DNA from: Acidobacteriota bacterium
GTDB lineage: Bacteria; Acidobacteriota; UBA6911; RPQK01; JAJDTT01
Reading direction: 5' to 3'
Assembly: GCA_965209055.1 (NCBI GenBank)
Contig: OZ242374.1
Span: 3,392,001-3,456,000, forward strand
Length of the DNA: 64,000 nucleotides
Shown piece after piece: positions 10,952 to 49,980 of the stretch; position 1 is the first letter of the stretch; each line of letters begins with the position of its first letter. The notes beneath the pieces are model-generated. The model saw only the letters and a list, made by a program, of their open reading frames with translations, made no database searches and was not told the origin of the DNA. The translations under genes were made by a program, and so were the position numbers.

Positions 10952-11577
10952 TTCGAACCCTGAAACTTCTATTTTTTGGCGCCGGTCTGGCGGTGGCTCC
11001 AGGATGTGCGGCGCCGTCGGACGACTCGCCTCCCGCTGGATTCACCAGGCTGTTCAATGGCCATGATCTGACCGGTTGGAAAGATGACGGCAGCGGACAC
11101 TGGCGGGCCGAGGACGGCATGATCGTTTACGATGGCGGAGGCTGGCAGCCGGCCCCGAATACGGTGTTCCAGCGCAATTTGCGAACGGAAAAGGAATACG
11201 GCGATTTCATACTGCTCATCGACTGGAAGATCGAGAAAGACGGGAACAGCGGCATCTATCTGCGTGGCGAGCTGCAAGTGGAGATCTGGGACAGAACGGC
11301 GGAGGTGTACTCATCTCCCCACGGGTCGGGTGGAATCGTCGGTTACACCGTCCCGGGACGCATCCCGCTACGGACTGTCGACCGTCCGTTGGGAGAGTGG
11401 AACCACTTCGAGATTCGCGTCGAGAATGAAACCGTCACCGTCCATCTCAATGACCAGCTCGTGATCGACAGACATGCGGCCGAGTTCAAGCGGTCCGAAG
11501 GGCCCATCGTGCTCCAGCACCATGGTTGGCCCCTGTGGTTCAAGAATGTATACGTCAAAGAGTTGGCCGAGAATTGA
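10948..11577 (+). CDS. DUF1080 (3-keto-disaccharide hydrolase) lipoprotein
   Basis: LFNGHDLTGW, YGDFIL, GNSGIYLR, GEWNHFEI, GPIVLQHHG, FKNVYVK. ATGA overlap with the upstream gene. Confidence 0.9.
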   Translation: MIRTLKLLFFGAGLAVAPGCAAPSDDSPPAGFTRLFNGHDLTGWKDDGSGHWRAEDGMIVYDGGGWQPAPNTVFQRNLRTEKEYGDFILLIDWKIEKDGNSGIYLRGELQVEIWDRTAEVYSSPHGSGGIVGYTVPGRIPLRTVDRPLGEWNHFEIRVENETVTVHLNDQLVIDRHAAEFKRSEGPIVLQHHGWPLWFKNVYVKELAEN

Positions 11578-11634
11578 CGAAGGCCGAAGCCGGACCGGAG
11601 ACACTCCAATGAACTCGCCCTTGCCGGTCCCGAG

Positions 11635-11643
11635 TGGTATAAT
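11635..11643 (+). promoter_or_regulatory. Extended -10 promoter for the PPC-DUF1553-DUF1501 operon
   Basis: TG-G-TATAAT, 38 nt upstream of ATG 11682. Confidence 0.6.
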
Positions 11644-11681
11644 CTCGCACTAACCAAAAACCATAAGCCTGAAAGCTCCGA

Positions 11682-13589
11682 ATGGTGAAACGCCGGCGAC
11701 ATTTTGACCACCCCGGATTCCCGGAATTGCGTGCGTGTTTCTTCGGTGCGGCTTGTATCGCCTTGTTGTTTTTGGTTCCGTCCGCTGGCCGGCTCGAGGC
11801 GCAAGCCTCCGGCGACGAGGCCACACCCGAGCCGATGTTGATTTCGGTCTTTCCTCCCGGCGGGCAGCAGGGTTCCGGCGTGGAACTCGTGATCCGGGGA
11901 GAAGCTCTGGACGGCGCCTATTCGCTCGTCTTTGGTTCCTCCGGCCTGGAGGCCCGGGTCGGCAAAGTCGAGATGATCGAGGGGCCTGATCCGGCGGGTC
12001 CGTATCCCAAAAAGGAGAAATCGCCCTTCTTCTTTCGTGTCACGGCGCGCCTCACCATAGATTCGTCGGTTCCCGTTGGAACCCATCCGTTTCGCCTGGT
12101 CTCTCATCGAGGAGTTTCCAACGCTCTCCACTTCCGGGTCGACGAAGGCGGCGTGATCAGCGAGATCGATACCCCCCATCCGTCCGCCCGGCAGGCGCAG
12201 GAGATTGACGTCCCCGTCATCGTCAACGGCCGGATCGACGAGCACGGCGAGCTGGACGCCTACGGGTTCGACGCGGTGGCCGGTCAGGAGTTCACCTTCG
12301 AAATCACTCAGGCGGCGCATTTCGAGCCGCGCCTCGCCCTTTACCGTCCCACCGGGAGCTGGCTCGATCCCGACCGTCCCACTCGCCTGCTTTTCCGGGA
12401 GCAGGAGTCTTCTGACCTGATTCCGATCCGGCCCGTTTACTCCTACCGCGTGGCGGAGTCGGGACGCTATTTGGTCGAAGTCGCGTCGCTCTTGGGAAAA
12501 GGGGGCCCCGACTGTGGTTATCAGCTTCGGGTTCTGACCACCGGTCCCGCTCCGCAGGCCAGTTCCGAACCCGCGTGGACCGAACGGGATTTCACCCGGA
12601 AGATCGACGGCGAGTGGACCGGCCGGCTCCGTTCCCGGACGGTCCGGCAGACGAATCCCGGTTCCGATTCCACGGAGATCGCCTCCGGCGCCGGGAGCCT
12701 GGCGGCGTCCCCCGATTCTCCGCCTTCGGCAGTGACTCCGGCTCTTGAGAGCCGGGCCCGCCTCCGGGAACAGGAGCCGAACGAGGCGCGCGGACAGGCC
12801 GTGCCGTTGGCCGTGGGAGACATCGTCGAAGGCAACATCAGCGCGCCCGGCGACCGCGACACCTACGCGTTCGAGGGGGAGGCGGGAGCGGAACTGGTGT
12901 TCGAGATCGAGACTTCCGGCGTGGAGCCGCCCCACTTCAACCCGCGCCTGGAGCTTTTGGGAGAAGACGGCGAATCGCTGCTGGCCAACGTTCACAAGCA
13001 CGTGACGGTCTACAACGGCGGTGGCATCCCCAGTACCTTTCTGAAGACGGTCGAACCCAAGATGGCCTACACCCTGGAGCGGAGCGGCCGATACTTCGTG
13101 GAGGTCAGCGACATCACCGCGCGGTACGGCGGTCCGGAATTCGGGTATCGGCTGCTTGTACGCGCTCCGATTCCCCACGTGGGCGCCATCGAAGTGGACC
13201 CGTCCGACCGCATCAACCTGGTCCCGGGACGAGCCCGGAAACTGAGCATCGTTACGCATCAAGAGGAGGGGTTTGCCGGGGAAGTCCTTTTTGACTGTTC
13301 CAACCTGCCGCCCGGTGTGCGGGTTTTTGCGGGAGCGGATGTGGAGAAGAAGGGTAACGCCCCCGTCAGCCAGCAGGAGGAAAATTTCTTGCCCGCTGTG
13401 CAGAAGACGACCCTGGTCCTCCTGGCCGACCCGGATGCTGCAGTCACCCGCATGCCGTCATTGGTCCGCTTGACCGCCAGGCCCGTGGTCGGTGGACGAG
13501 TTGGCGCAGACCTGCCCGTCGCGGAGCTCCTGCTGATGGTGGTCGCGCCTTCCGGTCCGGATCAGGCTGCCGAGCAAGGAGGCTCATGA
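11682..13589 (+). CDS. PPC (pre-peptidase C-terminal) domain-containing secreted protein
   Basis: SVFPPGGQQGS, PVIVNGRI...ELDAYGF, EQEPN, GDRDTYAF, SGRYFVEV motifs, typical of PVC proteins encoded next to DUF1549/DUF1553. Confidence 0.75.
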   Translation: MVKRRRHFDHPGFPELRACFFGAACIALLFLVPSAGRLEAQASGDEATPEPMLISVFPPGGQQGSGVELVIRGEALDGAYSLVFGSSGLEARVGKVEMIEGPDPAGPYPKKEKSPFFFRVTARLTIDSSVPVGTHPFRLVSHRGVSNALHFRVDEGGVISEIDTPHPSARQAQEIDVPVIVNGRIDEHGELDAYGFDAVAGQEFTFEITQAAHFEPRLALYRPTGSWLDPDRPTRLLFREQESSDLIPIRPVYSYRVAESGRYLVEVASLLGKGGPDCGYQLRVLTTGPAPQASSEPAWTERDFTRKIDGEWTGRLRSRTVRQTNPGSDSTEIASGAGSLAASPDSPPSAVTPALESRARLREQEPNEARGQAVPLAVGDIVEGNISAPGDRDTYAFEGEAGAELVFEIETSGVEPPHFNPRLELLGEDGESLLANVHKHVTVYNGGGIPSTFLKTVEPKMAYTLERSGRYFVEVSDITARYGGPEFGYRLLVRAPIPHVGAIEVDPSDRINLVPGRARKLSIVTHQEEGFAGEVLFDCSNLPPGVRVFAGADVEKKGNAPVSQQEENFLPAVQKTTLVLLADPDAAVTRMPSLVRLTARPVVGGRVGADLPVAELLLMVVAPSGPDQAAEQGGS

Positions 13590-16168
13590 GCTTTCACGGG
13601 ACCGATCGATTTACTCTCGCGAGGAATCGCCCACGGCGACTGCGCCCGGCCCTCTGCTCGACCATTGCCGTCGTTGTCTCATTCCTTGCGTCCGCACCGG
13701 CCGCCGTCGTGGAACCCGCGCCGAGCCATGTTCCGACGCTGCTCTCCCTGCGTTTGGTCCCGGAGCAGGTGAACCTTCAGGGCCCGGGGGCTTCCCAGCG
13801 ATTCGTGGCCATGGGGACGTTTGCCGACGGACTGGAGCGGGATCTGACTGCCGCCAGCCGGTTTCATCTCTCCGATACCGAACTGGCCCGTGTGGACGAT
13901 GGCGGTAAGGTCGTGGCCCTGGCGCCGGGGGAGCTGACTCTACGGGTCGAGAACGGAGGCCACGAGGTCCATTCGAGGGTTCGAATCGACACGGTTGCGG
14001 AACCGAGGCCCTTCCGTTTCGATCGCGATATCGCCTCCATACTGACCAAACGGGGCTGCAACGCCAGCGAGTGCCACGGCAGCGTCAAGGGGCAGGGAGG
14101 ATTCAAGCTCTCCCTCGACGGCCTCTATCCGGAAGAAGACCACGAGTGGATCGTCAAAGGTGGGATCTACCAGGTTCTCGTCATGGAATCGGGGGGGCCG
14201 CGAGTCCCCCGGGTGAATCCGGGGCATCCGGAGCAGAGCCTGTTGCTGCAGAAGGCCACCATGCAGGTGGGCCACGTCGGAGGTGAGCGCATCGGCGCCG
14301 ATTCCGCGGACTACGCCACCCTCCTGGACTGGGTCCGGAAGGGGGCCGAATACGGCGATCGGAGTGAAGGCGGGCGGATCGCGCGAGTGACGGTCTTCCC
14401 GCAGGAAGCCGTACTGGACGGCGATGGCGTGCAGCAGCTTCTGGTGACCGCCTACGGGCCCGACGGACGGCGCGAGGACATCAGTCACCAGGCTCGTTAC
14501 GTCTCCCAGAATCCCCACGTCGTGACGGTCGACGAGAACGGCCGCGTTACGGCCACCGGAAGGGGAGAGACGACGGTGCTGGTCCGCACCGCAGGTCATG
14601 CCGTCAGTGCACGCTTCGGAGTAGTGGACGCGTCGGCTCCAGTCGAATTCAGAATCGAGCCCCGCAATCTCATCGACAAGCACGTCTTCGCCAAATTGCG
14701 GAAGTTCCAGATCCGTCCTTCTGCGCTTTCCAGCGATTCGGAATTCCTGCGCCGCGTCTGCCTGGACATCACCGGCACCCTGCCGCCGCCGGATCGGGTC
14801 CGGGAATTCCTGGCCGACACCGACCCTGGGAAACGGGACAAGCTCATCGAGACTCTCCTGGACTCTCCCCAGTACGCGGACTATTGGAGCTTCCTGTTCG
14901 CGGACCTGTTCCGTGTGACCTACACCACCGTGGGCCCGATCAAAGAGGTCAAGGCATACGACGACTGGGTGCGCAACGGCATCCTCCAGAACAAGCGGTA
15001 CGACCGCATGGCGCGCGAACGTATCGCCGCTCAGGGGTACGGGGCTCCCACCCGTCACTTTTTTCGGTATACCGAACTGATCGTGCCCCACGAGGTCATG
15101 GCCGAGCAGGTCCGCCTCTTCATGGGGCGCCGGCTGGATTGCGCCCAGTGCCACAATCATCCCTTCGAGACCTGGAGCCAGGACCAGTTCTGGGGAATGA
15201 CCGCCTTTTTCGGCAACGTCACGCAACTTTCGGATTCTCAGTTGGTTTTCGACAATCCGGAGGGTGGGCGATCCTATGACTTGAAACAGGAGGGGATCAA
15301 GACCGTCCATCCACGCCGGAAGGAAGAAGTCCGGGCCAGATTTATGGACGGGTCATTCCCGACCGGGGAACAGGAGCGCGACCCGCGCCTGGCTCTGGCC
15401 GACTGGATCATCGCCCAGCCCGCCTTCGCTGAGACTATCGTGAACCGGGTCTGGGGCTATTTCTTCGGCCGGGGTATCGTGGACCCGGTGGACGACTTCA
15501 AGGTGTCCAACCCGCCGACCCATCCCGTGCTGCTCTCCGCGCTGGCGGAAGACTTCGTGGAGCACGGCTACGACCTGAAGCATCTCATGAGGCGGATCGT
15601 CCGGTCGCGGACCTACCAGACTTCGGGAGTCCCCAACCGGACCAACAGGGAAGATGGAATCAACTATTCCCGGGCTTTGGCCCGGCCGCTGCAGGCGACC
15701 GTCCTGCTGGACGCCATCTCCTACGCCACCGGAGTCCCGGAGGAGTTTCCGGTGCACCCCAAGACCGTGCGCACCGGCGCGGCTCGCCCGGGGGCCCGGG
15801 CCATCGACCTGATTCCCGAACTTTTCCCCTGTCATTTCCTCGACGTCTACGGACGGTCCATGCGCAAGTCGCTTCCGGAAAAGCCGTCGCTGACGTTGAC
15901 CCAGGCCCTGCACATGTGGGCGGGATCGACCTATACCACCAAGATCACGCAGGAAGGCGGACGTCTCGACCGGGCGCTGAAGGACGGCCTGTCCGATTCC
16001 CAGATCATCGAAGACTTCTACCTGGCGGCGCTGTCGCGATACCCGACCGAACGGGAACGATCCGACCTGGAAGCGTTTGTCCGGGAGGAATCCTCCCCGC
16101 GGCCGGAGCAATTGGCGAACCTGATGTGGGCCCTCATCAGTTCGCGGGAGTTTGCATACAATCATTGA
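13586..16168 (+). CDS. DUF1549/DUF1553 (PSCyt2/PSD1) protein with Ig-like (Big_2) domains
   Basis: GCNASECHG, NLIDKHV, EFLRRVCLDITGTLP, CAQCHNHPF, NRVWGYFFGRGIVDPVDD, PTHPVLL, LMWALISSREF. Confidence 0.9.
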   Translation: MSFHGTDRFTLARNRPRRLRPALCSTIAVVVSFLASAPAAVVEPAPSHVPTLLSLRLVPEQVNLQGPGASQRFVAMGTFADGLERDLTAASRFHLSDTELARVDDGGKVVALAPGELTLRVENGGHEVHSRVRIDTVAEPRPFRFDRDIASILTKRGCNASECHGSVKGQGGFKLSLDGLYPEEDHEWIVKGGIYQVLVMESGGPRVPRVNPGHPEQSLLLQKATMQVGHVGGERIGADSADYATLLDWVRKGAEYGDRSEGGRIARVTVFPQEAVLDGDGVQQLLVTAYGPDGRREDISHQARYVSQNPHVVTVDENGRVTATGRGETTVLVRTAGHAVSARFGVVDASAPVEFRIEPRNLIDKHVFAKLRKFQIRPSALSSDSEFLRRVCLDITGTLPPPDRVREFLADTDPGKRDKLIETLLDSPQYADYWSFLFADLFRVTYTTVGPIKEVKAYDDWVRNGILQNKRYDRMARERIAAQGYGAPTRHFFRYTELIVPHEVMAEQVRLFMGRRLDCAQCHNHPFETWSQDQFWGMTAFFGNVTQLSDSQLVFDNPEGGRSYDLKQEGIKTVHPRRKEEVRARFMDGSFPTGEQERDPRLALADWIIAQPAFAETIVNRVWGYFFGRGIVDPVDDFKVSNPPTHPVLLSALAEDFVEHGYDLKHLMRRIVRSRTYQTSGVPNRTNREDGINYSRALARPLQATVLLDAISYATGVPEEFPVHPKTVRTGAARPGARAIDLIPELFPCHFLDVYGRSMRKSLPEKPSLTLTQALHMWAGSTYTTKITQEGGRLDRALKDGLSDSQIIEDFYLAALSRYPTERERSDLEAFVREESSPRPEQLANLMWALISSREFAYNH

Positions 16169-16248
16169 GGAGCGGCGGTTTTCTTACCGCCGATCTCCAT
16201 TGAAACAACGGGCAAAGAGGGATCGGATGACCGCAACGTCGCCCCTCC
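16169..16248. repeat. REP-like palindrome doublet
   Basis: GGAGCGGCGGTTTTCTTACCGCCGAT (reverse orientation of the 7308 unit) plus an inverted unit ending CGTCGCCCCTCC. Confidence 0.7.
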
Positions 16249-16267
16249 AAGGACGGACGGAGAAGGA

Positions 16268-17617
16268 ATGTTGAAAGAATATCGTTGTTTCCAGTGCAGG
16301 CGGACCAGACTCGGGCGCCGCGACTTCCTCCGTGCCGGCTCCCTGAGCTTTCTCGGGATGAACGCCGGCGACCTCTTCAGGCTGGAACGTCTCCAAGCGG
16401 CCTCCAACGACAAGCCGGCGGCCGGACAGGCGCAGGCGTGCATTCTCCTCTTCCTGGAGGGCGGTGCCAGCCAGATGGACACCTGGGACCCCAAGGGGAA
16501 CACCAACTTCGGCTCCATCGCCACCAACGTCGACGGCATCCGGATCTCCGAACTCCTGCCCAAGACGGCCCAGCACATGGACAAGCTCTCGCTGATCCGT
16601 TCCATGCGGACGGAGGAGACCAACCATCCGCAGGGAACCATCGAGTCGCTGACCGGCCATCGGCCCAGCCCCACCATGAAGTTCCCGGGATTCGGGTCGA
16701 TCGTGGCCAAGGAAATGGGCGCCCGTAACAACATGCCGCCGTTCACCACGGTCCCCATGCCTTGGGAGAACGACTTTTACAACTACGAGGAGGCCTTCAA
16801 GGGCTCGTACATCGGAGCCGAGTATGACGCCATGGTCCTGCCGGACCCCAGCGCCGAGGAATTCGTCGTGCCCGATCTCCGGTTGCCCAAAACGGTTTCC
16901 GCCGCGGCCATCGAGGATCGAAAGACTCTGCTCAGCATCGTGGACCGGCACTACCGGTCCACCCAGGAGGTAGCCGAGTTCGGCAAGATGGACACGTATC
17001 GCGAGCAGGCGCTGGGCATGATCCTGTCGCCGCACGTCCAGAAGGCCTTCGACCTCTCCAGCGAATCGGAGAAGACCCGGGACGCGTATGGACGCCACCG
17101 CTTCGGACAGAGCGTGCTGATGGCCCGCCGCCTGGTGGAGGCCGGATGCCGCTTCGTCACGGCGGCCGGCTACAAACACGGGCAGTGGGACACGCACGGG
17201 AGCAACGACAAGCGGATGAAGGAAGACTTGACGCCTCCCCTGGATAAGGCGCTCTCCGCTCTGTTGGAAGATCTGGATCAAAGAGGTCTGTGGGAATCGA
17301 CGGTGGTGCTGGTCATGGGAGAGTTCGGACGCACCCCCCACATCAATCCCGGCCTGGGACGGGATCACTGGCCCCACTGCTGGTCGCTGGCGCTGGGCGG
17401 CGGCGGTATCCAGGGGGGACAGGTCATCGGCGTCAGCGACGACCGGGCGGCCTACGTTGCGGAACGCCCCATCTCCATCGGCGACCTTTACGCCACCATC
17501 TACAAGGCGCTGGGCATCGATTGGACCAAGACCTACATGGCCCCCGTGGGTCGTCCCGTCTACATCGCCAACGGTTTCGACGACACCATGGGGCAGCCCA
17601 TCCCGGAATTGATCTGA
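16268..17617 (+). CDS. DUF1501 domain protein (Tat signal)
   Basis: GRRDFL, FLEGGASQMDTWDPK, ARRLVEAGCRFV, WDTH, GEFGRTP, GRDHWP. Confidence 0.92.
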   Translation: MLKEYRCFQCRRTRLGRRDFLRAGSLSFLGMNAGDLFRLERLQAASNDKPAAGQAQACILLFLEGGASQMDTWDPKGNTNFGSIATNVDGIRISELLPKTAQHMDKLSLIRSMRTEETNHPQGTIESLTGHRPSPTMKFPGFGSIVAKEMGARNNMPPFTTVPMPWENDFYNYEEAFKGSYIGAEYDAMVLPDPSAEEFVVPDLRLPKTVSAAAIEDRKTLLSIVDRHYRSTQEVAEFGKMDTYREQALGMILSPHVQKAFDLSSESEKTRDAYGRHRFGQSVLMARRLVEAGCRFVTAAGYKHGQWDTHGSNDKRMKEDLTPPLDKALSALLEDLDQRGLWESTVVLVMGEFGRTPHINPGLGRDHWPHCWSLALGGGGIQGGQVIGVSDDRAAYVAERPISIGDLYATIYKALGIDWTKTYMAPVGRPVYIANGFDDTMGQPIPELI

Positions 17618-17626
17618 CAGCCCGTC

Positions 17627-20389
17627 GTGAACCCGTCCGTCAGATCGGATAGCCTCGATACTCCCTGGCCGCTCGGTTCCTGTCCGAATCTGGGCCGTTC
17701 CATCCCGAGTCGGATGCATGCCCTGACCCTGTACCGGGACCAATACGGTCCACCCCGGGACGTGGTCCGCTTGGAGGAGGTAGAGGTTCCACGCCTCCGC
17801 GCGGCCGACGCCCGGGGAGTCCTGGTGGCCGTTCTGGCCAGCGGACCCAACTTCAACACCAATTTCGCGGCTCTGGGACTGCCGGTTCCCGTCTTCGCCC
17901 GGGGCGACAGCGCCATCCTCCACATTCCGGGAAGCGACGCCCTGGGAATCGTGGTGGATGCCGGTCCCGCGGTCCGGTCGGTGAAGGTGGGTCAGGCCGT
18001 CATTCTCGATTCCTGGACCGGACACAACATTCGAGGCTATGAGACCCACGACGGCTTCAATGCCCAGTTCGCCATGGTCGACGAGGAACGGGCCATTCCG
18101 GTCCCTCCCTCCCTCGGCAGCCATAGTCCCGAGCAGTTGTCGGCCATGCTGCTCACCTATGGAACGGCCTACCGCACCGTGGTGGAGCGCCTGGCCGTCG
18201 GTCCGGGAGACTCCATGCTGGTCCTGGGAGGAGGGAAGGGAACCAGCTTCGCCGCCGCGCAACTGGGAAAGGCCCTCGGGGCCCGCGTGGTCCTGATGGG
18301 TTCCAATCCGGCGTTGGGCCGGTCGCTCATCGAGCGGGGAATCGCCGACTCCTTCGTCGACCGGCGGCGGATCCCGGCCGAAGTCTTCGGCGTGGTCGAC
18401 GTCGGGGAGGAATACGGCGAGTGGCATGCCCGGACCGAGCCCTTTCGCCGCATCGTGCTGGCCGCCAACGACGGCCGTCCGGTGGACACGGTCTTCGAGC
18501 ATACCGGGGGCGCCAATTTCCCCCTGCTGGTTTCGGTTCTTGCCCCCAAGGGACGGCTCGCCTTCTTCGGCGCCACCGGACGGGGCCTCAAGGGCGAATA
18601 CAAGGAGACCTTCTTCTACGACGGACGCCGCTTCGTCCTGGATGCCCGCTGGGTCTGGATGCGCCAGAAGCAGGTCCTCTTTCGGAGTGGGACCCCAGCG
18701 GAGATCTTCTCGGAGATCGGGCTGCTGCCGGGGCGAAGAGGGCTGGTCTGGGGGGCTGACCGGTACGCGCGGGAGTTCGTCGAAGCGGCGCTTCAGCGGC
18801 GGGCGGACCTGGCGGTGGTCGCGTCCCGTTCCCGGGAAGCAGAGGGACTGGCCGCTCTGTCCCGCATGGGCCTCGACGGGTCGCGGATCATCGACCGCGA
18901 CCGGTTCCGGCTACCCGTCGACATGCCGGATCCCTTGACCGACAAAGGGACGCCGAATCCCGCCTACATGTCGGACTTCATGCTGGACGCACGCGCTCTC
19001 GGGAGGGCCATCTGGGAGGTCTTCGGCCCCCGGGTCAATCCGGACTTCATCGTGGAGCGTCCCGATCAGAGCACGCTCCATGTCAGCACCTTCCTGTTGA
19101 GGGACCATGACGAGAAGGACGAGATGTCCTGCGGCATCATCGTGGCCCGCGGGTCGTCCGATCTGACCGTCTCCGGATCCCACATGTATCGGGCCGCTCA
19201 GGCCCGGGAGACGGTTCGCCTGTTGGCCCGGAACCGGATCGTCATGGACCAGGAGGACCTGGAGGTGGTGGATCTGGCGGGTTTGCCGGAGATCCAGCAG
19301 AAGATGCTGGACGGCACCATGGCGAAACCCAAGGGTGTGTCGCTCGTCCAGGCGGACGGTGCGGGCCGGAAGATCTCCGACTACGAGGTCGAATACCTGG
19401 GCAGGACGCTCCGCGAGGCCGACCCGGAGAACGGCCGGTTCATCGACTTGAGCCTGATCGAAGAGGTGGGAATCCTCACCCTCAGGCGGCCGGACGCCCT
19501 GAATGCCCTCAATCAGGAACTGCTGGCCCAGCTTGCCCAACTGACGGAGGAGCTCGGAGCGCACGGAACCCTCCACGGAGGGAGGACGACCGCCCTGATC
19601 GTGCGCGGTTCCGGACGCGCATTCGTGGCGGGGGCCGACGTTCAGGGCTTTGTGGGAGGGGATGCCGAGTCCATCCGGCGGCTGGCGGCGGAGAACATGG
19701 CTCTCTTCCGGCGGTTGGAATCCCTGCCTCTTCCGGTGGTGTCGATCGTGGACGGCTTCGCGCTGGGCGGCGGCAACGAGCTGGCCATGAGCACCCACTA
19801 TCGAATCGTCACCGAAAACGCCGTCATCGGACAGCCGGAGGTGAAGCTCGGCATCATCCCGGGATATGGGGGCATGCAGCGGCTGCCGAGGCTCGTCGGT
19901 CCGCGGAGAGCCGCCGAAATCGCGGTCAACGGAGAGTCGGTGGACGGACGCACGGCGGTCCGGATCGGGCTGGCCCACGAGTTCCATCCCGCCTCCACCG
20001 CCCTGACCAGGGCGTTCCGGGTAGCGGACGAGCTCCGGTCCGGTGCGCGCCGATTCCAGGCGTCCGATTGGGACGAGCTTGCCGCCGGTCAAAGCCGGGC
20101 GTTGGAGGCGCTTTACGGAAGCGATGCCGTGAGCGGAATCCTGCAATCACCCACGCCCGTCGGCGAAGCGGCGGAAGGTCTTCGGGCCGCTCGCCGGTTC
20201 GCGGCCCGGCTGGCCCTGGATGCCATGCGGTTCGGCTACGAACGCGGATTCACCCAGGGTATGGACAACGACGCCAAACTGTTCGGCGAAGCCGTAGCAT
20301 CGGAGTCCGGTCAGTGGTGGGTGCGGCGCTTCCTGGCGAAAGATCCCAGACAGTCCGCCTTCGTGACGTTGCTGCAGCCTGAGGGTTGA
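17627..20389 (+). CDS. Fusion of a crotonyl-CoA carboxylase/reductase-like MDR (with duplicated Rossmann domain) and an enoyl-CoA hydratase
   Basis: Ccr motifs NFNTNFAALGLP, HIPGSDALGIV, IRGYETHDGFNAQF, VFEHTG, DARWVWMRQKQ. Second Rossmann copy LVWGA...IIDRDRF...GRAIWEVFG...SGSHMY. Crotonase motifs DALNAL, AFVAGAD, GGGNEL, QPEVKLGIIPGYGGMQRL. Confidence 0.85.
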   Translation: MNPSVRSDSLDTPWPLGSCPNLGRSIPSRMHALTLYRDQYGPPRDVVRLEEVEVPRLRAADARGVLVAVLASGPNFNTNFAALGLPVPVFARGDSAILHIPGSDALGIVVDAGPAVRSVKVGQAVILDSWTGHNIRGYETHDGFNAQFAMVDEERAIPVPPSLGSHSPEQLSAMLLTYGTAYRTVVERLAVGPGDSMLVLGGGKGTSFAAAQLGKALGARVVLMGSNPALGRSLIERGIADSFVDRRRIPAEVFGVVDVGEEYGEWHARTEPFRRIVLAANDGRPVDTVFEHTGGANFPLLVSVLAPKGRLAFFGATGRGLKGEYKETFFYDGRRFVLDARWVWMRQKQVLFRSGTPAEIFSEIGLLPGRRGLVWGADRYAREFVEAALQRRADLAVVASRSREAEGLAALSRMGLDGSRIIDRDRFRLPVDMPDPLTDKGTPNPAYMSDFMLDARALGRAIWEVFGPRVNPDFIVERPDQSTLHVSTFLLRDHDEKDEMSCGIIVARGSSDLTVSGSHMYRAAQARETVRLLARNRIVMDQEDLEVVDLAGLPEIQQKMLDGTMAKPKGVSLVQADGAGRKISDYEVEYLGRTLREADPENGRFIDLSLIEEVGILTLRRPDALNALNQELLAQLAQLTEELGAHGTLHGGRTTALIVRGSGRAFVAGADVQGFVGGDAESIRRLAAENMALFRRLESLPLPVVSIVDGFALGGGNELAMSTHYRIVTENAVIGQPEVKLGIIPGYGGMQRLPRLVGPRRAAEIAVNGESVDGRTAVRIGLAHEFHPASTALTRAFRVADELRSGARRFQASDWDELAAGQSRALEALYGSDAVSGILQSPTPVGEAAEGLRAARRFAARLALDAMRFGYERGFTQGMDNDAKLFGEAVASESGQWWVRRFLAKDPRQSAFVTLLQPEG

Positions 20390-20398
20390 CCGGGGGCG

Positions 20399-20974
20399 TC
20401 AGCGGTTCCTGGCCGGATTCTCCAGGAACAGCCTGAAACGGACCTGCTCCCAATCGCCCCAATTCCTCCTCCTCTGAAAGAGAAAGTGGACCTCCGAGTC
20501 CTCCGATCCGCGAAAGGCCCGGAGCGTATTCTCCCAGTTTTGCTCCTGGTCCTGGTACTGCGGCCGGCCCGTCTTGCTCAACTGCCTTTCTTCCGCCGTT
20601 CCCAGCGGGACGGCCGTCGACCGGAGATACAGAGTTCCGACCAAGGGAATGACTCGATCCGTCTCCGTTTCAGCGCCCTCTTGGCCCGCGACAGTGGTCA
20701 CGACCTGCTCGCCCCGCAGAAAGACCAGGGAACAGCCCTCCTCCTCGCGGCGGACTTCCAGATCGAAGCCACCCCGGTCCAACCGCTTACCGCCCTCCGT
20801 GTAAAGAGTTCGATCCAGCCGAATCTCCGTCACGTAGACCTCGCCGGCTGCCGTCGCCACTCCGAGTCCCACCATCACAATCATCGTCAGAAGGGATCTT
20901 GTAGTCTGCCGAGCTATTCCCACGGAGGTCTTGACAATAGCGCTCCGTACAGACTTCACGTTGCAATCCCACAC
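20399..20974 (-). CDS. Hypothetical exported protein
   Basis: 191-aa ORF filling the gap, with a hydrophobic signal-like stretch LLTMIVMVGLGVATAAG. The true start is probably downstream of 20974. Confidence 0.55.
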   Translation of the reverse strand: MWDCNVKSVRSAIVKTSVGIARQTTRSLLTMIVMVGLGVATAAGEVYVTEIRLDRTLYTEGGKRLDRGGFDLEVRREEEGCSLVFLRGEQVVTTVAGQEGAETETDRVIPLVGTLYLRSTAVPLGTAEERQLSKTGRPQYQDQEQNWENTLRAFRGSEDSEVHFLFQRRRNWGDWEQVRFRLFLENPARNR

Positions 20975-21463: not shown

Positions 21464-22933
21464 TTAGCTCGCCTGAAGGAGCCGTTGCGAGAGGTCGTTG
21501 TATCCGCCCACGTCAGTGAGCCGCCGGTCTCGTCCCTGGAAGAAGTACGTGAGTCCTTCGTGGTCCAGACCCAGCAGAGAGAGGATGGTGGCGTGCAGGT
21601 CGTGGACGTGGACCTTGTCCTCGGTCACCTTCATTCCCAGATCGTCGGTGGCGCCGATGGCCTTTCCTCCCTGGATTCCGGCTCCCGCCATCCAGCAGGA
21701 GAAGCCGTACGGGTGGTGGTCCCGGCCGAGTTTCCCCTGCACGAATGGGGTTCGGCCGAACTCTCCGGAACAGAATACGAGGGTGCTGTCCATCAGTCCG
21801 CGCTGTTTGAGATCCTGCAGGAGGCCGGCGATGGGCTGGTCCACCTTCCTGGAGTTTTCCCAGTGGTTTCGGGAGCACTGCTCGTGGCCGTCCCAGTCGG
21901 TGCTGATCAGGTGCACGAAACGGACGCCGCGCTCCAACATGCGCCGGGTCAGCAGGCACATCCGCCCGAACTTCCGGCTCTTTTCCTGGTCCAGTCCGTA
22001 GAGGCGCCGGACGTGTTCCGGCTCCCGGGAAAGGTCCACCAGTTCCGGCGCAGCGGTCTGCATCCGGAAGGCCAGCTCGTAGTTGGTGATGCGAGCCGCC
22101 AGACTCGTGTCGTCGGCGCGGTCCTGGTAGTGCCGCCGGTTCGATTTCCGGATCCAGTCCAGGAGGTTCCGCTGATCCGCCGCGGTCATCTCCCGGGGCG
22201 GAGTCAGGTCCTTGAGGGGAGAGCCCTCGGAACGGAGCAGGGTGCCCTGATAGATGGCGGGCAGGAACCCGGAGCCGAAGTGGTTCCGGTTGGTCCGGCC
22301 CCACAAGTTGCCGTCGGTCATCACCATGTAGGCGGGAAGGTTGTCGTTCTCGCTCCCCAGGCCGTAGAGGATCCAGGACCCGACGCTGGGATGCCCGTTC
22401 AGGATGGAGCCGGTGCTGAGATAGTTGCTCGCCGGACCGTGGACGAAGGAGTCGTGGTAACAGGAGCGCACCACCGCCAGATCGTCGGCATGGGCGGCCA
22501 CGTTCCGCATGAGATCCGAAATTTCCAGGCCCGAGTCGCCGTACCGGTGGAAGGGGATGTCCGAACCCATCAGCTTGGCATCTCCGGCGGCGATATTGGC
22601 GAAATTGAGATCGTCCGAGGCGAAGCTCTGAGGAAGGGTCTGACCATCGAAGCGGGTCAGGACCGGCTTGGGATCCAGGGTGTCCACGTGGCTGGCGCCT
22701 CCCTGGAGATAGATAAAGACCACGTTGCGGCCGCTGGCGCTCTGGTGCGGCGGCTTGGGTGCGAGCGGGTGCGGGACCGGTTCCCGGGTTCCCTTGGCGG
22801 AGGCCGTCCGGAAGAACGATTCCCGCTCCAGCAGATGGATCAACGGCAGGGAGCCGAAGCCCATTCCCCACTTGCTCAGAAACTCCCGGCGGGAGCCGGC
22901 CGTCTCATGGCGCTGGCAACGGAAGGGATTCAT
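21464..22933 (-). CDS. DUF1501 domain protein (Tat signal)
   Basis: SRREFL, GGASHVDTLDPKP, YELAFRMQ, RRMLERGVRFV, WDGH, GEFGRTP, GRDHHP, RRLTDVGG. Confidence 0.92.
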   Translation of the reverse strand: MNPFRCQRHETAGSRREFLSKWGMGFGSLPLIHLLERESFFRTASAKGTREPVPHPLAPKPPHQSASGRNVVFIYLQGGASHVDTLDPKPVLTRFDGQTLPQSFASDDLNFANIAAGDAKLMGSDIPFHRYGDSGLEISDLMRNVAAHADDLAVVRSCYHDSFVHGPASNYLSTGSILNGHPSVGSWILYGLGSENDNLPAYMVMTDGNLWGRTNRNHFGSGFLPAIYQGTLLRSEGSPLKDLTPPREMTAADQRNLLDWIRKSNRRHYQDRADDTSLAARITNYELAFRMQTAAPELVDLSREPEHVRRLYGLDQEKSRKFGRMCLLTRRMLERGVRFVHLISTDWDGHEQCSRNHWENSRKVDQPIAGLLQDLKQRGLMDSTLVFCSGEFGRTPFVQGKLGRDHHPYGFSCWMAGAGIQGGKAIGATDDLGMKVTEDKVHVHDLHATILSLLGLDHEGLTYFFQGRDRRLTDVGGYNDLSQRLLQAS

Positions 22934-22948
22934 GGAAAATACCGCTTC

Positions 22949-25573
22949 TCAGTCAATATGGCTGAACTCGTTGAGATTAAACAGGCCCAGGCAGAGCTGG
23001 GTCAAGGCAGCCGCCCGGGGCCGCGGGATTTTCTCGAGCCCGGCCGGCAGCTCGGACCAACTCTCCGCCTTCACCTCGCGGGCCCGGGCCGACATCAATT
23101 CCAGCGCCTCCTTCTTCTCCTCGGGCGAAGGCGCCCGGCTCAAGGCCAGCCGCCACGCCTTTTCGACCCAGGCTGCCGGGTCGTCCCCCTCGCTCTCCAC
23201 CAGCCGGGACGCGAGGGCTACTGCCTGCCGGAAGGCCATCCGGTTGTTGAGAAACCAGAGGGCCTGCGGTGCCACCGTGGTGACGTCACGGCGGGGGCAG
23301 CTGACGGCGTTCTGGGGGCTGTCGAAGACGTCGAACATGGGAAACCGGAGATTGCGGCGGCTGAGGATGTAGACGCCCCGGCGGTATTGGGATTCGGGGT
23401 CCGCAGCGGTCAGCCAACCTTTGGGATCTCCCAGGCTTGCCATCTCTTCATCTCCCAGCGGCGGCGCCGCCGGACGGCCGTACGCCCCGAGATTCAAAGT
23501 GCCGGCCACCGCAAGTGTGGCGTCCCAGAGGACTTCCGCTTCCAACCGCCGCCGGTTCATTCTCCAGAGGAGACGGTTTTCGGGGTCCAGCGAGAGAGCG
23601 GCCGGGTCGCTGTGCAAGCTGGACATGCGGTAGGTGCTGGAGTTCAGGATCAGCCAGTGCATCGCCTTGAGGCTCCAGTTCCGGGCTGTGAACTCGACGG
23701 CCAGCCAATCCAGGAGCTGCGGATGGCTGGGCGCCTCCCCCTGGCGGCCGTAGTCGTTGGGAGTTCTCACCAGTCCTCGTCCCAAATGCCACTGCCAGAG
23801 CCGGTTCACCATGACCCGGGCGGTGAGAGGGTGGTCGGGACGGCTCAGCCAGAGCGCCAACTGCTTGCGGGGGCGGTTCTCCATTGATCCCGAGAAGACG
23901 CCGTTGGGATCGGTCTCCCCGCTCAACACCGCCGGGAAGCCGGGTCCGACCCGTTCCTCCTTTTGTCTGAACTCGCCTCGACTCAAGACGTGAACGGGCG
24001 CGGAAGCCTCCCGATCGTAATGACCCAGCACTGAAGCGGTCGGCAACTCGAGCAGTCCTTCGAACCGGACCAGATTGGAGCCCTCGATCTCGGAGACCTT
24101 GAGTACGGCGCGGGCCAGCCCGATAAGCAGATTTTCGTGCTGGTCCTTCTCCGGCTCGGTCAGAGCCTCCTCGAACTTGACGGCGCGAACCGCGTCCATC
24201 AGGAGCTTCGCCAATTCTTCCTGCTCCGGGGTCCGACGATCCTTTTCCGTCTCGTAGGCCTCGACCACCTCCGGAGCAAATTTCGCTTTCTTCTCCTGTT
24301 CGATCCTCTTCTTGACCTGTTTCTCGAATCGGCGGTAAGCGGAACGGCTTTCGTCCACGGCGATGACGGCGGGGTAGTCGATGTTCCGCGAGACCGCCTG
24401 AATGGGACTCATGACGGGGATGTCGACCTTGCGGCTGTTGGCAAACAGCGCTTGGAAGGCGTAGTAGTCCCTCTGGCTGATGGGGTCGGCCTTGTGATCG
24501 TGACAGCGGGCGCAGCCCAGGGTGAGGCCCAGGAAGGCGGCGCCGGTGGTGTCCGCCCAGTCGGTCAGTTCCTCGGCGCGCAACTGCTGGGCGTCCTGCA
24601 TCGATTCCAGCACCTCGGGTCCGAACGTGTAGAGGCCGGTTCCGACCCGGGCTTCCAGGTATTCGTTCTTCTTCAGGGGAATGGTCCGGCTCCCCAGGAG
24701 CTCGAACCGTTGGGGCCAGAGCTCGTCTCCGGCGATCTGCTCCTGCAGGAAACGGTCGTAGGGCTTGTCCTCGTTGAACGACTTGATGACGTAGTCCCGA
24801 TACCGCCAGGCGTTGGGATAGTAGTGATCCGACTCGTATCCGCTGCTGTCGGCATAGCGGACCACGTCCAGCCAGTGCCGGGCCCAGCGCTCGCCGTAGC
24901 GCGGCGATTCCAGCAGCTCGCCCACCATCCTGCCGTAGGGATCCGGCGAGTCGTCTCCCAAGTGCCGGTCCATCTGCTCCGGCGTCGGCGGAAGTCCGAT
25001 GAGGTCGAAGTAGGCCCTTCGGATCAGGGTTCTCCGGTCGGCCTCGGGAGCCGGTTTCAAGCCCTTCTCCTGCAACCGGGCCAGCACGAAGGCATCGATG
25101 GGGTTGCTGACCCAACCGTCCGCATCCGCCGCCGGAACGGCAGGCCGCCGGAGCTTCCGGAACGACCACCAGGAGGGTGGGGAGGAGCCGTCTTCGCGAA
25201 CGCTGGCCCATGGGAGGCCGCCGTCGATCCAGCGGCGCAGCACTTCCAGATCCGCAGCCGCCAGCGGAGAGCCGCCCGGGGGCATCTTCAGCTCGCCGTC
25301 ATGGGACGCGGCCAGAAACAGGAGGCTCGATCCGGCGTCTCCGGGGACCGCCGCCGGACCCCGGTGGCCGCCTTCCAGGAGAGTTTGCCGACTGCCCAGA
25401 TCAAGTCCCCCCTGGCGCGCCACGCCATGGCAGGCAAGGCAGTTCCGCTCCATGATCCGGAGAGCATCCGCCGCCAAAGATCCGTCCGCTTCGGAACGGC
25501 TGGAACTACCCTCCAGAAACGGCAGCAAGCAACTGGATACGACGGCGAGTAGCAACCACGGCCGACTATTCAT
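22949..25573 (-). CDS. PSD1/DUF1553 + DUF1549 + planctomycete cytochrome c protein
   Basis: CLACH, NPIDAF, RRAYFDLIGLPP, YGERWARHWLDVVRYADS, CARCHDHK, HPLTARVMVNRLWQWHLGRG. Confidence 0.92.
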   Translation of the reverse strand: MNSRPWLLLAVVSSCLLPFLEGSSSRSEADGSLAADALRIMERNCLACHGVARQGGLDLGSRQTLLEGGHRGPAAVPGDAGSSLLFLAASHDGELKMPPGGSPLAAADLEVLRRWIDGGLPWASVREDGSSPPSWWSFRKLRRPAVPAADADGWVSNPIDAFVLARLQEKGLKPAPEADRRTLIRRAYFDLIGLPPTPEQMDRHLGDDSPDPYGRMVGELLESPRYGERWARHWLDVVRYADSSGYESDHYYPNAWRYRDYVIKSFNEDKPYDRFLQEQIAGDELWPQRFELLGSRTIPLKKNEYLEARVGTGLYTFGPEVLESMQDAQQLRAEELTDWADTTGAAFLGLTLGCARCHDHKADPISQRDYYAFQALFANSRKVDIPVMSPIQAVSRNIDYPAVIAVDESRSAYRRFEKQVKKRIEQEKKAKFAPEVVEAYETEKDRRTPEQEELAKLLMDAVRAVKFEEALTEPEKDQHENLLIGLARAVLKVSEIEGSNLVRFEGLLELPTASVLGHYDREASAPVHVLSRGEFRQKEERVGPGFPAVLSGETDPNGVFSGSMENRPRKQLALWLSRPDHPLTARVMVNRLWQWHLGRGLVRTPNDYGRQGEAPSHPQLLDWLAVEFTARNWSLKAMHWLILNSSTYRMSSLHSDPAALSLDPENRLLWRMNRRRLEAEVLWDATLAVAGTLNLGAYGRPAAPPLGDEEMASLGDPKGWLTAADPESQYRRGVYILSRRNLRFPMFDVFDSPQNAVSCPRRDVTTVAPQALWFLNNRMAFRQAVALASRLVESEGDDPAAWVEKAWRLALSRAPSPEEKKEALELMSARAREVKAESWSELPAGLEKIPRPRAAALTQLCLGLFNLNEFSHID

Positions 25574-38720: not shown

Positions 38721-39509
38721 TCAGCCGTTCCCGGTCTTCCCGGATTGGGAAGCGCGAAAGGTTTCCAACGCGGACTTTGCCCCGCCGACAAGAAGGCTGT
38801 AATCGCTCCCGTAGCCCAGGAAGGTGAATCCCTGTTCCAGGCGGTGCGCCAGATCGTCCGGACTCCCAACGCCGATGCCGATGGCCACGCCGGTGTCCCG
38901 GCCCACCTTGAGAGCCTTGTCGATCACGGCGTCCGTCTCCGGGTGCGGCTGACGCCTGGGGTCCACGCCCAGAGCCAGCGACAGGTCCCACATGCCCATG
39001 TAAAGCAGGTCGACTCCCGGCACGGACGCGATCCGCTCCAGGTCCTCCACCGCCTCGGCCGTCTCCAGCAGCAGGCCCACCAGGATGTTCTGGTTGGCCC
39101 GTTCCAGGTAGTCGTCGTAGTCGAGGGTGTAGCGGGACGCCCGCAGGGGACCGAACCCGCGGTTTCCCTCCGGCGGATAACGAGTGGCGGCCACCACCGC
39201 TTCCGCCTCCTCCACGGTCTTCACCATGGGGACGATGATCCCCATGCCGCCGATATCCAGAGCCTTCTGGATGGCGAACAGGTCCGAGGGCGGCACCCGG
39301 ACCATGGGCATGGCGCCGGAGCCGTCGATGGCCATCAGCATGCGCTCGACCTGGGCCGAATCCAGGGCGTTGTGCTCGGTTTCGACCAGCAGCCAGTCGT
39401 AGCCGCAATAGGCCAGCAGTTCGGCCACGGGGGGACTACCCAGTCCCAGAAAACAGCCGACGGCAGTCTCTCCCGCGATGACCTTCCGGCGAATCCGATT
39501 TTCCTGCAT
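38721..39509 (-). CDS. HpcH/HpaI aldolase family protein
   Basis: GYDWLLVETEH, ALDIGGMGIIVPMV, YPPEGNRG, LETAEAV, VPGVD. Confidence 0.92.
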   Translation of the reverse strand: MQENRIRRKVIAGETAVGCFLGLGSPPVAELLAYCGYDWLLVETEHNALDSAQVERMLMAIDGSGAMPMVRVPPSDLFAIQKALDIGGMGIIVPMVKTVEEAEAVVAATRYPPEGNRGFGPLRASRYTLDYDDYLERANQNILVGLLLETAEAVEDLERIASVPGVDLLYMGMWDLSLALGVDPRRQPHPETDAVIDKALKVGRDTGVAIGIGVGSPDDLAHRLEQGFTFLGYGSDYSLLVGGAKSALETFRASQSGKTGNG

Positions 39510-49164: not shown

Positions 49165-49977
49165 TTACCGATTCGCAGCCCGCGCCAAAAACCTGGCTTG
49201 TCCCACTTCCATCTGCCGCCCCGAGGGTTGGATCGCCGTCATTCCGGCGTCCACCATCAGCACGGCTCCGGTGATGTAGGAGGCTTCGTCGCTGGCCAGA
49301 AACAGGATGGCGTTGGCCACCTCGCTGGGCTCGGCGAAGCGGGACATGAGCGTCTGGCCCGCATAGGGCGCCACGTTCTCGGCCGGCGTGTTGGCCATCA
49401 TGGGCGTGTTCATACCGGTGGGGCAGACGGCGTTGGCCCGGATGCCGTCGAGGCCGCAGTCCTGGGCGATGCAGCGGGTCAGGCCGATGAGGCCGTGCTT
49501 GGAGGTGTTGTAGTCAGCCTGGTTCTCGTTCCCCTGAACGCCTGACACCGAGGAGACACAGACGATGCTTCCGGCCCCCTGGCGTTTCATCTGGGGAATC
49601 ACCGCCTTCGAGCAGAGAAACGGGCCCCGCAGGTTGACCCGCATGATCCGGTCCCAGACCTCCGCATCGATCTCGTACACCGGCGCCACTCTTCCAAAAG
49701 TGGCGGCGTTGTTCACCAGGACGTCGATCCGGCCGAACTGCTCCAGAGTGGTCTCCGCCATCCGCTCCGTGTCCTGCTCGTCGCTGCAGTCGGCAATGAT
49801 CGTAATCGCTTCGCCACCGGCCTCACCGATTTTCTCCACCGTCTCCGCGGCCGTCTGCGGGTTCACGTCCACAACGGCCACCCGCGCGCCTTCCGCCGCG
49901 AACCGCAATGCCACGGACTCTCCCAAGCCCTGCCCGGCCCCTGTAACGATAGCCACCTTGTCCGCCAAACGTCCCAT
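49165..49977 (-). CDS. SDR family oxidoreductase (paralog of 34947..35696)
   Basis: TGAGQGLG, NNAA, YNTSKHGLIGL, EVANAILFLASD. Confidence 0.93.
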   Translation of the reverse strand: MGRLADKVAIVTGAGQGLGESVALRFAAEGARVAVVDVNPQTAAETVEKIGEAGGEAITIIADCSDEQDTERMAETTLEQFGRIDVLVNNAATFGRVAPVYEIDAEVWDRIMRVNLRGPFLCSKAVIPQMKRQGAGSIVCVSSVSGVQGNENQADYNTSKHGLIGLTRCIAQDCGLDGIRANAVCPTGMNTPMMANTPAENVAPYAGQTLMSRFAEPSEVANAILFLASDEASYITGAVLMVDAGMTAIQPSGRQMEVGQARFLARAANR

Positions 49978-49980
49978 CCT

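Follow-up and report, generated by a model that had tools for sequence, protein, structure and literature searches.

The window analysed here, a stretch of 64,000 nucleotides from an Acidobacteriota bacterium (contig OZ242374.1, positions 3,392,001 to 3,456,000 of the forward strand), contains a gene that joins a reductase resembling crotonyl-CoA carboxylase/reductase (Ccr) to a crotonase, and raises the question of which reaction such a fusion catalyses and whether CO2 is fixed in it. The product is an uncharacterised fused enzyme whose probable reaction, judged from its sequence, is the conversion of a small hydroxy-acid CoA ester to propionyl-CoA. In our judgement the chances are evenly balanced that it is a bifunctional, ligase-less relative of propionyl-CoA synthase (Pcs), combining a 3-hydroxyacyl-CoA dehydratase with an NADPH-dependent enoyl-CoA reductase, with C3 substrates as the leading candidates.

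The gene is one open reading frame (ORF) of 920 codons, initiated by GTG. The stop codon of an upstream DUF1501 gene on the same strand lies 10 nucleotides before the GTG, and this start is supported by the homologues, which begin about 12 residues ahead of the conserved WPLG motif. The chain consists of a medium-chain dehydrogenase/reductase (MDR) part, interrupted by an inserted segment, and a crotonase:

17627..20389 (+): whole gene, fused reductase-dehydratase of 920 aa; GTG start, stop codon within the coordinates
17666..18196 (+): aa 14-190, N-terminal segment of the Ccr type (WPLG..P.LG..P..M), then the GroES-like catalytic domain
17855-17860 (+): N77-T78, within the aa 14-190 segment
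18038-18043 (+): Y138-E139, within the aa 14-190 segment
18197..18682 (+): aa 191-352, first Rossmann segment; Gly-rich loop GGGKGTS at 201-207, DARWVWMRQKQ at the end
18683..19162 (+): aa 353-512, insert formed by a second Rossmann-like segment, degenerate, with WGADRYA and without a Gly-rich loop; boundaries approximate
19163..19396 (+): aa 513-590, MDR catalytic domain resumed, with GSH and its H519 (19181-19183)
19442..20386 (+): aa 606-920, predicted crotonase-fold (S)-3-hydroxyacyl-CoA dehydratase/enoyl-CoA hydratase with a C-terminal helical extension
19778-19780 and 19838-19840 (+): E718 and E738 of the crotonase segment, the two catalytic glutamates

Pfam recognises ADH_N at residues 65-160 (27.6 bits, gathering threshold 23.5), marginally ADH_zinc_N at 209-321 (32.1 bits, gathering threshold 31.8) and ECH_1 at 614-814 (135.1 bits, threshold 27); an AMP-binding (ligase) domain was not found in the Pfam scan of the protein. 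The top NCBIfam model is that of Ccr (TIGR01751), which scores 168.3 bits, below its cut-off of 378.55, and none of the NCBIfam enoyl-CoA hydratase equivalogs scores over its cut-off. All motifs quoted in the initial annotation are found in the translation: NFN (75-77), GYET (137-140), LGGGKGTS (200-207), WMRQKQ (344-349), WGADRYA (375-381), GSH (517-519), GGGNEL (714-719) and QPEVKLG (736-742).

Relationship to propionyl-CoA synthase

Pcs is presented in passages of PMC7289016 as the textbook single-protein 'nanoreactor'; according to parts of PMC10266731, it activates 3-hydroxypropionate (3HP), dehydrates it to acrylyl-CoA and reduces this to propionyl-CoA in a multicatalytic compartment. 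The best PDB match of the whole 920-aa protein is Pcs of Erythrobacter sp. NAP1 (6EQO; 164.6 bits, E 2.6e-47), in two colinear stretches: query 39-492 aligns with 1266-1727 of Pcs, over the entire reductase stretch including the insert, and query 613-906 aligns with 905-1203. As the dehydratase (905-1203) precedes the reductase (from 1266) in Pcs, the initial proposal of a ligase-less, order-reversed relative is borne out at the level of domains. The 920-aa protein shares with 6EQO and with the Chloroflexus aurantiacus enzyme a dehydratase of the crotonase type, whose C-terminal helical part is long, and a reductase of the enoyl-CoA carboxylase/reductase (Ecr) type that has an extra degenerate Rossmann-like insert and keeps N-x-N, GYE and G(S/T)H. 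It differs in the absence of the ligase, in the order reductase-dehydratase versus ligase-dehydratase-reductase, and in an identity of only 26-33%. Natural Pcs variants in which a reductase is followed by an enoyl-CoA hydratase (ECH) domain do exist (P0149, P0148).

The crotonase half is a complete enoyl-CoA hydratase, as had been annotated: next to the ECH_1 match, it has E718 in GGGNEL and E738 in QPEVKLG, the two catalytic glutamates of crotonase. Conservation was counted over ungapped rows of an alignment of 170 family members, 121 of them unfused and 49 fused to a further extension (see below), and 170/170 rows have both glutamates. In its core, the crotonase is roughly as close to a clostridial crotonase (5Z7R, 119 bits) and to the 3-hydroxypropionyl-CoA dehydratase of M. 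sedula (5ZAI, 115 bits) as to Pcs, and the C-terminal helical part is covered only by Pcs and by FadB/FadJ-type proteins.

The reductase half is Ccr-like up to WMRQKQ, in agreement with the initial annotation. Solved Ecrs (KsCcr 6OWE, M. extorquens Ccr 4GI2, AntE 4Y0K, CinF 4A0S) correspond to it from the N-terminal segment through the catalytic domain to the first Rossmann segment, matching residues 14-350; the alignment with 4GI2 (residues 20-353, 105 bits) stops at DARWVWMRQKQ, which stands immediately before GSH in Ecrs. Here, about 160-190 aa are inserted between WMRQKQ and GSH, splitting the junction between the Rossmann fold and the C-terminal part, and this insert together with the crotonase fusion makes the protein unlike the stand-alone Ecrs of about 400-450 aa with their uninterrupted Rossmann fold. 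AntE has a second match that runs from query 446-536 to AntE 289-386 and ends at the query GSH; thus, what separates WMRQKQ from GSH is a segment that again resembles the later part of the Ecr Rossmann fold. The insert is common, as aligned by MAFFT, to the Pcs-type proteins P0153, P0149, P0155 and P0225 and to an MDR-MaoC fusion (P0187); a canonical Ccr (L112, which scores 528 bits with TIGR01751) lacks it. A further difference from Ecrs is a gap of 17 residues ahead of GYE (HMMER alignment with 4GI2); the loss that had been noted before GYET is therefore real, and its size is 17 rather than about 20 residues.

The structural stand-in for the protein was the ESM Atlas model of a 69%-identical homologue, P0016 (predicted TM-score, pTM, 0.75). 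A cluster of 406-aa Ccr proteins aligns with this model at a TM-score of 0.88, with only 392 residues aligned across query 12-595, and Pcs-type clusters align with 552-557 residues across query 9-617, at TM-scores of 0.56-0.66. The extra segment before GSH is supported by AntE, Pcs and the Atlas model. The earlier description of it as a second copy of the nucleotide-binding domain is less secure: residues 190-352 and 353-530 have no significant similarity by BLASTP (E 0.51), and hhalign of the two sub-alignments gives 131 colinear columns at E 0.009 and a probability of 4.5%. As direct similarity between the halves is weak, 'duplicated' is a reasonable but unproven description, backed chiefly by the match of each half to one and the same Ecr region and by the alignment with Pcs. 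A Gly-rich loop (GGGKGTS) is present in copy 1 only, with G201-G203 and G205 in 165/165 rows, and NADPH would therefore be bound by the first Rossmann segment. WMRQK follows copy 1 in the family of the 920-aa protein, which leaves GSH alone behind copy 2; both motifs follow copy 2 in Pcs-type proteins and in P0187.

The domain identities, the intact catalytic residues, the shared insert, the size and conservation of the family and the gene inventory of the genome are observations; what we infer is substrate, direction, cofactor, channelling, and reduction rather than carboxylation as the main outcome. The C-terminal crotonase would dehydrate a short (S)-3-hydroxyacyl-CoA to the 2-enoyl-CoA, most likely 3-hydroxypropionyl-CoA to acrylyl-CoA and, as second choice, 3-hydroxybutyryl-CoA to crotonyl-CoA. 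The N-terminal Ecr/Pcs-type MDR would then use NADPH to reduce the enoyl-CoA to the saturated acyl-CoA (propionyl-CoA), and the fusion of the two domains may keep the reactive enoyl-CoA from escaping, as described for Pcs. Propionyl-CoA could go on to succinyl-CoA via the carboxyltransferase of the PccB/MmdA type and the acyl-CoA mutases of the genome. The same chemistry is known from the M. sedula dehydratase 5ZAI, from the archaeal acryloyl-CoA reductase and from bacterial AcuH and AcuI, which are separate polypeptides; AcuI/YhdH belong to another branch of the MDR proteins. The family is a test case of whether a two-domain enzyme can still sequester acrylyl-CoA when it has no ligase.

Reduction or carboxylation

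In parts of PMC6628652, Ecrs are called the fastest CO2-fixing enzymes, Asn81, Phe170, Glu171 and His365 are given as the CO2-pocket residues of KsCcr, with Thr82 and Ser119 in the second shell, and Tyr is described as able to stand for Phe170 in water shielding. As Asn81 and Thr82 are adjacent in KsCcr, N77-T78 can be fixed as their equivalents; Y138-E139 come from the GYE motif, which is GYE also in 4GI2, and H519 of GSH is the equivalent of His365 (HMMER and MAFFT alignments). Thus, equivalents of all four residues are present as initially annotated, with Tyr for Phe as in 4GI2. They hardly vary: N77 is found in 164/164 rows, Y138 in 165/165, E139 in 164/165 and H519 in 168/168. T78 is found in 160/164 rows, and S103 of a GSD motif, which we guess to be the equivalent of Ser119, in 163/165. 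Together with the crotonase glutamates, these counts indicate strong constraint on each of the two active sites throughout the 170 members.

The initial annotation had taken the four residues to make a carboxylating enzyme a candidate; carboxylation does not follow from them. Pcs-type P0153 keeps NFN-D, GYE and GTH in the alignment, and passages of PMC10176493 and PMC10266731 describe Pcs as a reductase with promiscuous or latent carboxylation only, which was later raised by engineering. Since Pcs-type reductases keep the same residues, the residues do not show carboxylation: they are necessary for it, yet are no proof of it. The family is thereby a test case for what, besides the four pocket residues, sets reduction versus carboxylation.

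A tree was constructed from the reductase domains of 22 proteins, among them a single canonical Ccr. The family forms a tight clade on a long stem (1.28), its sister is the MDR-MaoC protein P0187 (SH-aLRT 84), and both join the Pcs-type clade (SH-aLRT 82), with the single Ccr outside. The phylogeny against Ccr and Pcs domains, one of the checks that had been suggested, thus places the reductase with the insert-bearing Pcs-type and MDR-MaoC proteins and not with the one Ccr included, which goes against the carboxylase idea.

The genome of the window's organism is a single contig of 6.08 Mb (98.4% complete) with one copy of the gene. None of its 12 TIGR01751 matches is over the cut-off for a canonical Ccr, the best being the gene itself (135.2 bits), and a Ccr above the cut-off is likewise missing from all of five other host genomes. 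There are two acyl-CoA mutase large subunits, neither called ethylmalonyl-CoA mutase by NCBIfam, and one PccB/MmdA-type carboxyltransferase; isocitrate lyase was not found in the genome, and no MaoC-family gene scores over the cut-off, so that a classical ethylmalonyl-CoA route would be without its mesaconyl-CoA hydratase family. HpcH/HpaI-family matches are unusually many (17), with one CitE-like lyase that remains below the equivalog cut-offs. Of the ethylmalonyl-CoA and 3HP genes for which a search had been proposed, the mutases and the carboxyltransferase are thus present, and Ccr and MaoC are missing at the cut-offs used. The inventory seems to fit a C3 product, propionyl-CoA or methylmalonyl-CoA, that proceeds to succinyl-CoA. 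Two complete pathways were rejected for this genome: the classical ethylmalonyl-CoA pathway, with no Ccr or MaoC over cut-off and a sub-cut-off CitE-like lyase, and the cycle through 3-hydroxypropionate and 4-hydroxybutyrate, for which no HpaB_N (AbfD-type) gene was found. The window itself contains an HpaI/GarL-type aldolase gene at 38790-39461 (-) (L115).

The first alternative keeps the order of steps, with dehydration of the 3-hydroxyacyl-CoA first, but takes the MDR for a true reductive carboxylase, which would use NADPH and CO2 to convert acrylyl-CoA to (2S)-methylmalonyl-CoA or crotonyl-CoA to ethylmalonyl-CoA and save the ATP of a biotin carboxylase; we consider this unlikely. The conservation of all four pocket equivalents across the 170 members would agree with it, as would the conserved Thr82 equivalent and S103 and the Tyr for Phe170, shared with the M. 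extorquens Ccr. Ccr is the closest match of the N-terminal half, which also has the Ecr-like N-T pair, and in a genome with neither a canonical Ccr nor isocitrate lyase, the acyl-CoA mutases could accept methylmalonyl-CoA. The sister architecture MDR-MaoC (P0187) moreover mimics two consecutive steps, presumably those of CroR and Ccr. Against carboxylation stand the presence of the same four residues in the only latently carboxylating Pcs-type reductases, the Ccr-model score of 168 bits against a cut-off of 378.55, the position outside the single Ccr on the tree and the 17 residues missing before GYE. For a C4 substrate, ethylmalonyl-CoA would have no classical onward route, as there is no MaoC hydratase over the cut-off, and the presence of the PccB/MmdA-type carboxyltransferase means that ATP-dependent carboxylation is not obviously dispensable. 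If the enzyme did carboxylate, it would be a natural part for ATP-saving synthetic CO2-fixation cycles.

The family and its fusion to short-chain dehydrogenases

The protein belongs to a conserved family of uncultured bacteria. A word-indexed search, in which 8,000 candidates were scored, returned 513 homologues at E <= 0.001; the best 120 are 822-982 aa long, have the same Pfam set and share 63-91% identity over 89-100% of the query, so the architecture is not due to chance. The source names of the homologues are only 'enoyl-CoA hydratase(-related)' or 'zinc-binding dehydrogenase', and a library clustered at 50% identity contains the 920-aa form as the single representative P0016. Among contigs from one genome per species, 141 of 176 pattern matches encode a relative, and 80 loci were kept, all of them (80/80) from records of metagenome-assembled genomes (MAGs). 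By their titles, about 17 are Acidobacteriota-type, 6 Actinomycetota-type and >40 of the 'Deltaproteobacteria'/Desulfobacterota/Deferrimicrobiaceae type, with a few from Gammaproteobacteria, Hyphomicrobiales, Methylomirabilis or Gemmatimonadota.

Many relatives are larger. Among the matches to proteins of 1,611-4,600 aa, 49 of 51 (P0122, P0271-P0318) consist of the MDR-ECH protein followed by an extension of about 1,640 aa with two short-chain dehydrogenase/reductase (SDR) domains of the adh_short/KR type; the fused form typically has 2,582 aa. Seven of the 80 loci carry a fused ORF of about 2,380-2,650 aa (L055, L058 at 9977-17725 (+), L059, L060, L065, L067 and L068), and an eighth (L073) has an ORF of 1,825 aa in the same cluster. 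In a FastTree phylogeny of 172 rows, fused and unfused members are interleaved, with 7 state changes.

When the whole extension is compared with the PDB, the top matches are the bifunctional malonyl-CoA reductases (Mcr) 8HJW and 8HI4, in two stretches each. Like Mcr (8HJW, 8HI4, 6K8V, 6K8S), the extension has two catalytic SDR domains, with a weak pseudo-SDR after the first; Mcr likewise has a pseudo-SDR following its first SDR. The differences from Mcr are that the halves are swapped, that the similarity to 8HJW/8HI4 is 37-55 bits per domain, that there are 510 extra N-terminal residues and that the first SDR has Q in place of the YxxxK lysine (Y683...Q687, with K690 three residues on, in 6/6 aligned sequences). 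Pfam recognises nothing in the first 510 or the last 351 residues of the extension.

The SDR fusion is a lead towards a 3-hydroxypropionate module, not proof of one; by its gene content, the window's organism uses the two-domain enzyme without SDR extension. The boldest possibility is a natural fused dehydratase-reductive carboxylase that converts 3-hydroxypropionyl-CoA via sequestered acrylyl-CoA to methylmalonyl-CoA with no ATP-dependent carboxylase and that, in the 2.58-kaa relatives with their Mcr-like SDR module, would form one mega-enzyme by which uncultured anaerobes, such as those of the Deferrimicrobium-type and further Desulfobacterota-type MAGs, assimilate CO2 along an as yet undescribed 3-hydroxypropionate route; we regard it as improbable. 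The synthetic HOPAC cycle was reportedly designed around this conversion to methylmalonyl-CoA as its key step.

The SDR domains can also be read as ketoreductases instead of malonyl-CoA reductase, and the MDR-ECH part as the dehydratase and enoyl-reductase half of a CoA-based ketoreductase-dehydratase-enoylreductase loop (reverse beta-oxidation of acetoacetyl-CoA-derived or longer chains). Two SDR domains of the adh_short/KR type in 49 of the 51 longer matches would suit such a loop, and so would the closeness of the crotonase core to 5Z7R (119 bits), which is about that to Pcs. It is also favoured by the comparison per domain, in which generic SDRs score as high as or above Mcr: at the first SDR, 4DYV has 76 bits versus 37-42 for Mcr, and at the second, the N-terminal Mcr fragment 6K8V has 76 bits versus 69 for generic SDRs. 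With Mcr as the top whole-chain match, the Mcr-like pseudo-SDR, a protein (P0148) that joins a complete Pcs-like unit to the same type of SDR region, and neither a thiolase nor an acyl carrier protein/ketosynthase (ACP/KS) partner seen in the domain lists, we think this loop has only a slight chance of being correct.

Further architectures with the insert-bearing reductase or the same modules were seen. P0148 (6,910 aa, from the representative library) has the order ECH-ligase (Pcs-like)-reductase-ECH-SDRs, with SDR regions resembling those in the fused members; about 1,100 residues at the N-terminal end and 1,900 at the C-terminal end have no assignment, and the N-terminal region contains a low-complexity Ser/Pro-rich repeat. 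P0187 (711 aa) is MDR-MaoC, P0225 (969 aa) a ligase-less ECH-MDR, P0155 (939 aa) an MDR-ECH of the Pcs-type clade and P0149 (2,388 aa) ECH-ligase-MDR-ECH. P0149, P0155 and P0225 are uncharacterised database proteins with the same two catalytic modules as the 920-aa protein, P0149 and P0155 also in the same order; they differ in having 25-33% identity to it and in belonging to the Pcs-type clade rather than to the clade of its family.

In a full-text literature search, which did not cover the primary Pcs papers (Nat Chem Biol 2018, JACS 2019) or supplements, where mentions are possible, nothing was found that describes an enzyme of the MDR-ECH type or a Pcs-like one without ligase; passages of PMC4195664, PMC11784365 and bioRxiv 10.64898/2026.09.02.748891 have no bearing on the family. 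The chemistry, both folds and the insert are already known from Pcs and Ecrs; not known from them are the combination of domains and its order, the place of WMRQK, the SDR mega-fusion and the spread through uncultured lineages. Members of the family could be mis-scored in metagenomes as Pcs, a marker of the 3-hydroxypropionate bi-cycle.

Several observations weigh against a ligase-less Pcs relative that acts on 3-hydroxypropionyl-CoA. The N-terminal 350 residues match Ccr 4GI2 with more bits (105) than the whole reductase matches Pcs (66), the second-shell Thr beside the CO2-anchoring Asn makes an Ecr-like N-T pair where Pcs has N-D, and the different position of WMRQK indicates that the family is not simply a truncated Pcs. 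The reductase tree has modest support and minimal Ccr sampling (one). The single match to the Pcs ligase in the organism's genome is an ACS-like gene 1.9 Mb away, and neither a source of 3HP nor a 3HP-CoA ligase is linked to the gene. Homologues of the SDR extension were found neither in this genome, where the best match is a generic SDR with 77 bits, nor in any of the five other genomes with an unfused gene. The neighbours in the window are DUF1549/DUF1553 and DUF1501 genes, and across the 80 loci there is no family-wide conserved neighbour or operon.

Neighbourhood and environmental records

Neighbourhoods were compared by greedy ORF calls on the 80 loci and the window, which gave 1,025 clustered ORFs; such calls are unreliable in G+C-rich DNA, where in one case a shadow ORF was chosen over a mutase gene. 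The largest neighbour cluster, of ABC-transporter ATPases, is found at 22 loci, and lineage-specific neighbours are mostly unrelated (GatZ, CorA, PdxA, LarA_N, CoaE, alanine dehydrogenase, a Liv-type ABC transporter). At Deferrimicrobiaceae-type loci, the opposite strand nearby encodes an aldehyde dehydrogenase in 5 cases and an ADP-forming acyl-CoA synthetase in 7, which is only a weak lead. In the window the gene is flanked by two similar gene sets:

13586-17617 (+): DUF1549/DUF1553 (PSCyt2/PSD1) and DUF1501 genes
21464-25573 (-): DUF1549/DUF1553 (PSCyt2/PSD1) and DUF1501 genes

One of the DUF1549/DUF1553 pairs has a PSCyt1 cytochrome-c domain and the other a Big_2 domain, and the arrangement recurs at the closest Acidobacteriota loci (ORF clusters 2 and 8, in 10 and 8 loci). 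Directly downstream of the gene and convergent to it lies an ORF of 191 aa (20399-20974, -), which has no Pfam match and whose cluster (cluster 5) is present at 9 related loci. A polyketide extender-unit role was dismissed, as there are no adjoining polyketide synthase (PKS) genes and the sole PKS match of the protein, P0320, has 26% identity over 20% of the query.

Window positions 17000-20600 were found in runs labelled as sponge metagenomes from four studies (coded P2, P3, P4 and P9). Of two sponge runs that were compared, one has a 16.5-kb contig that spans the stretch (52 differences over 3,601 bases); in the second, it is present in pieces. The sponge matches make a marine host setting plausible, and this bears on one more alternative, in which the two domains work in parallel to detoxify acrylyl-CoA, an electrophile arising from acrylate or dimethylsulfoniopropionate (DMSP), by AcuI-like reduction to propionyl-CoA and AcuH-like hydration to 3-hydroxypropionyl-CoA. 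Separate AcuI and AcuH enzymes have these roles in DMSP-catabolising bacteria, according to parts of PMC5651017 and PMC4029986, and a gene that stands alone, with no pathway neighbours, would be in line with detoxification. We nevertheless judge it very unlikely: the family is not marine-specific, its locus titles including groundwater, soil and peat-type MAG names, and 63-91% identity across phyla with invariant sites fits a central metabolic step better. Since crotonase reactions are reversible, the detoxifying enzyme would differ from the Pcs-like dehydratase-reductase in physiological direction only.

Two RNA-library runs of one study contain 7 and 4 short contigs over parts of the gene, mostly at 90-95% identity. 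These are contigs of relatives, with DNA carry-over possible, and give no more than a hint that a related gene is transcribed. In the same two runs, contigs that cover the upstream DUF1501 gene diverge from the window at position 17618, and the gene junction thus differs in those relatives. Elsewhere in the window, an SDR-like match at 49549-50112 (-) lies inside an open frame of 842 aa that contains one in-frame TGA.

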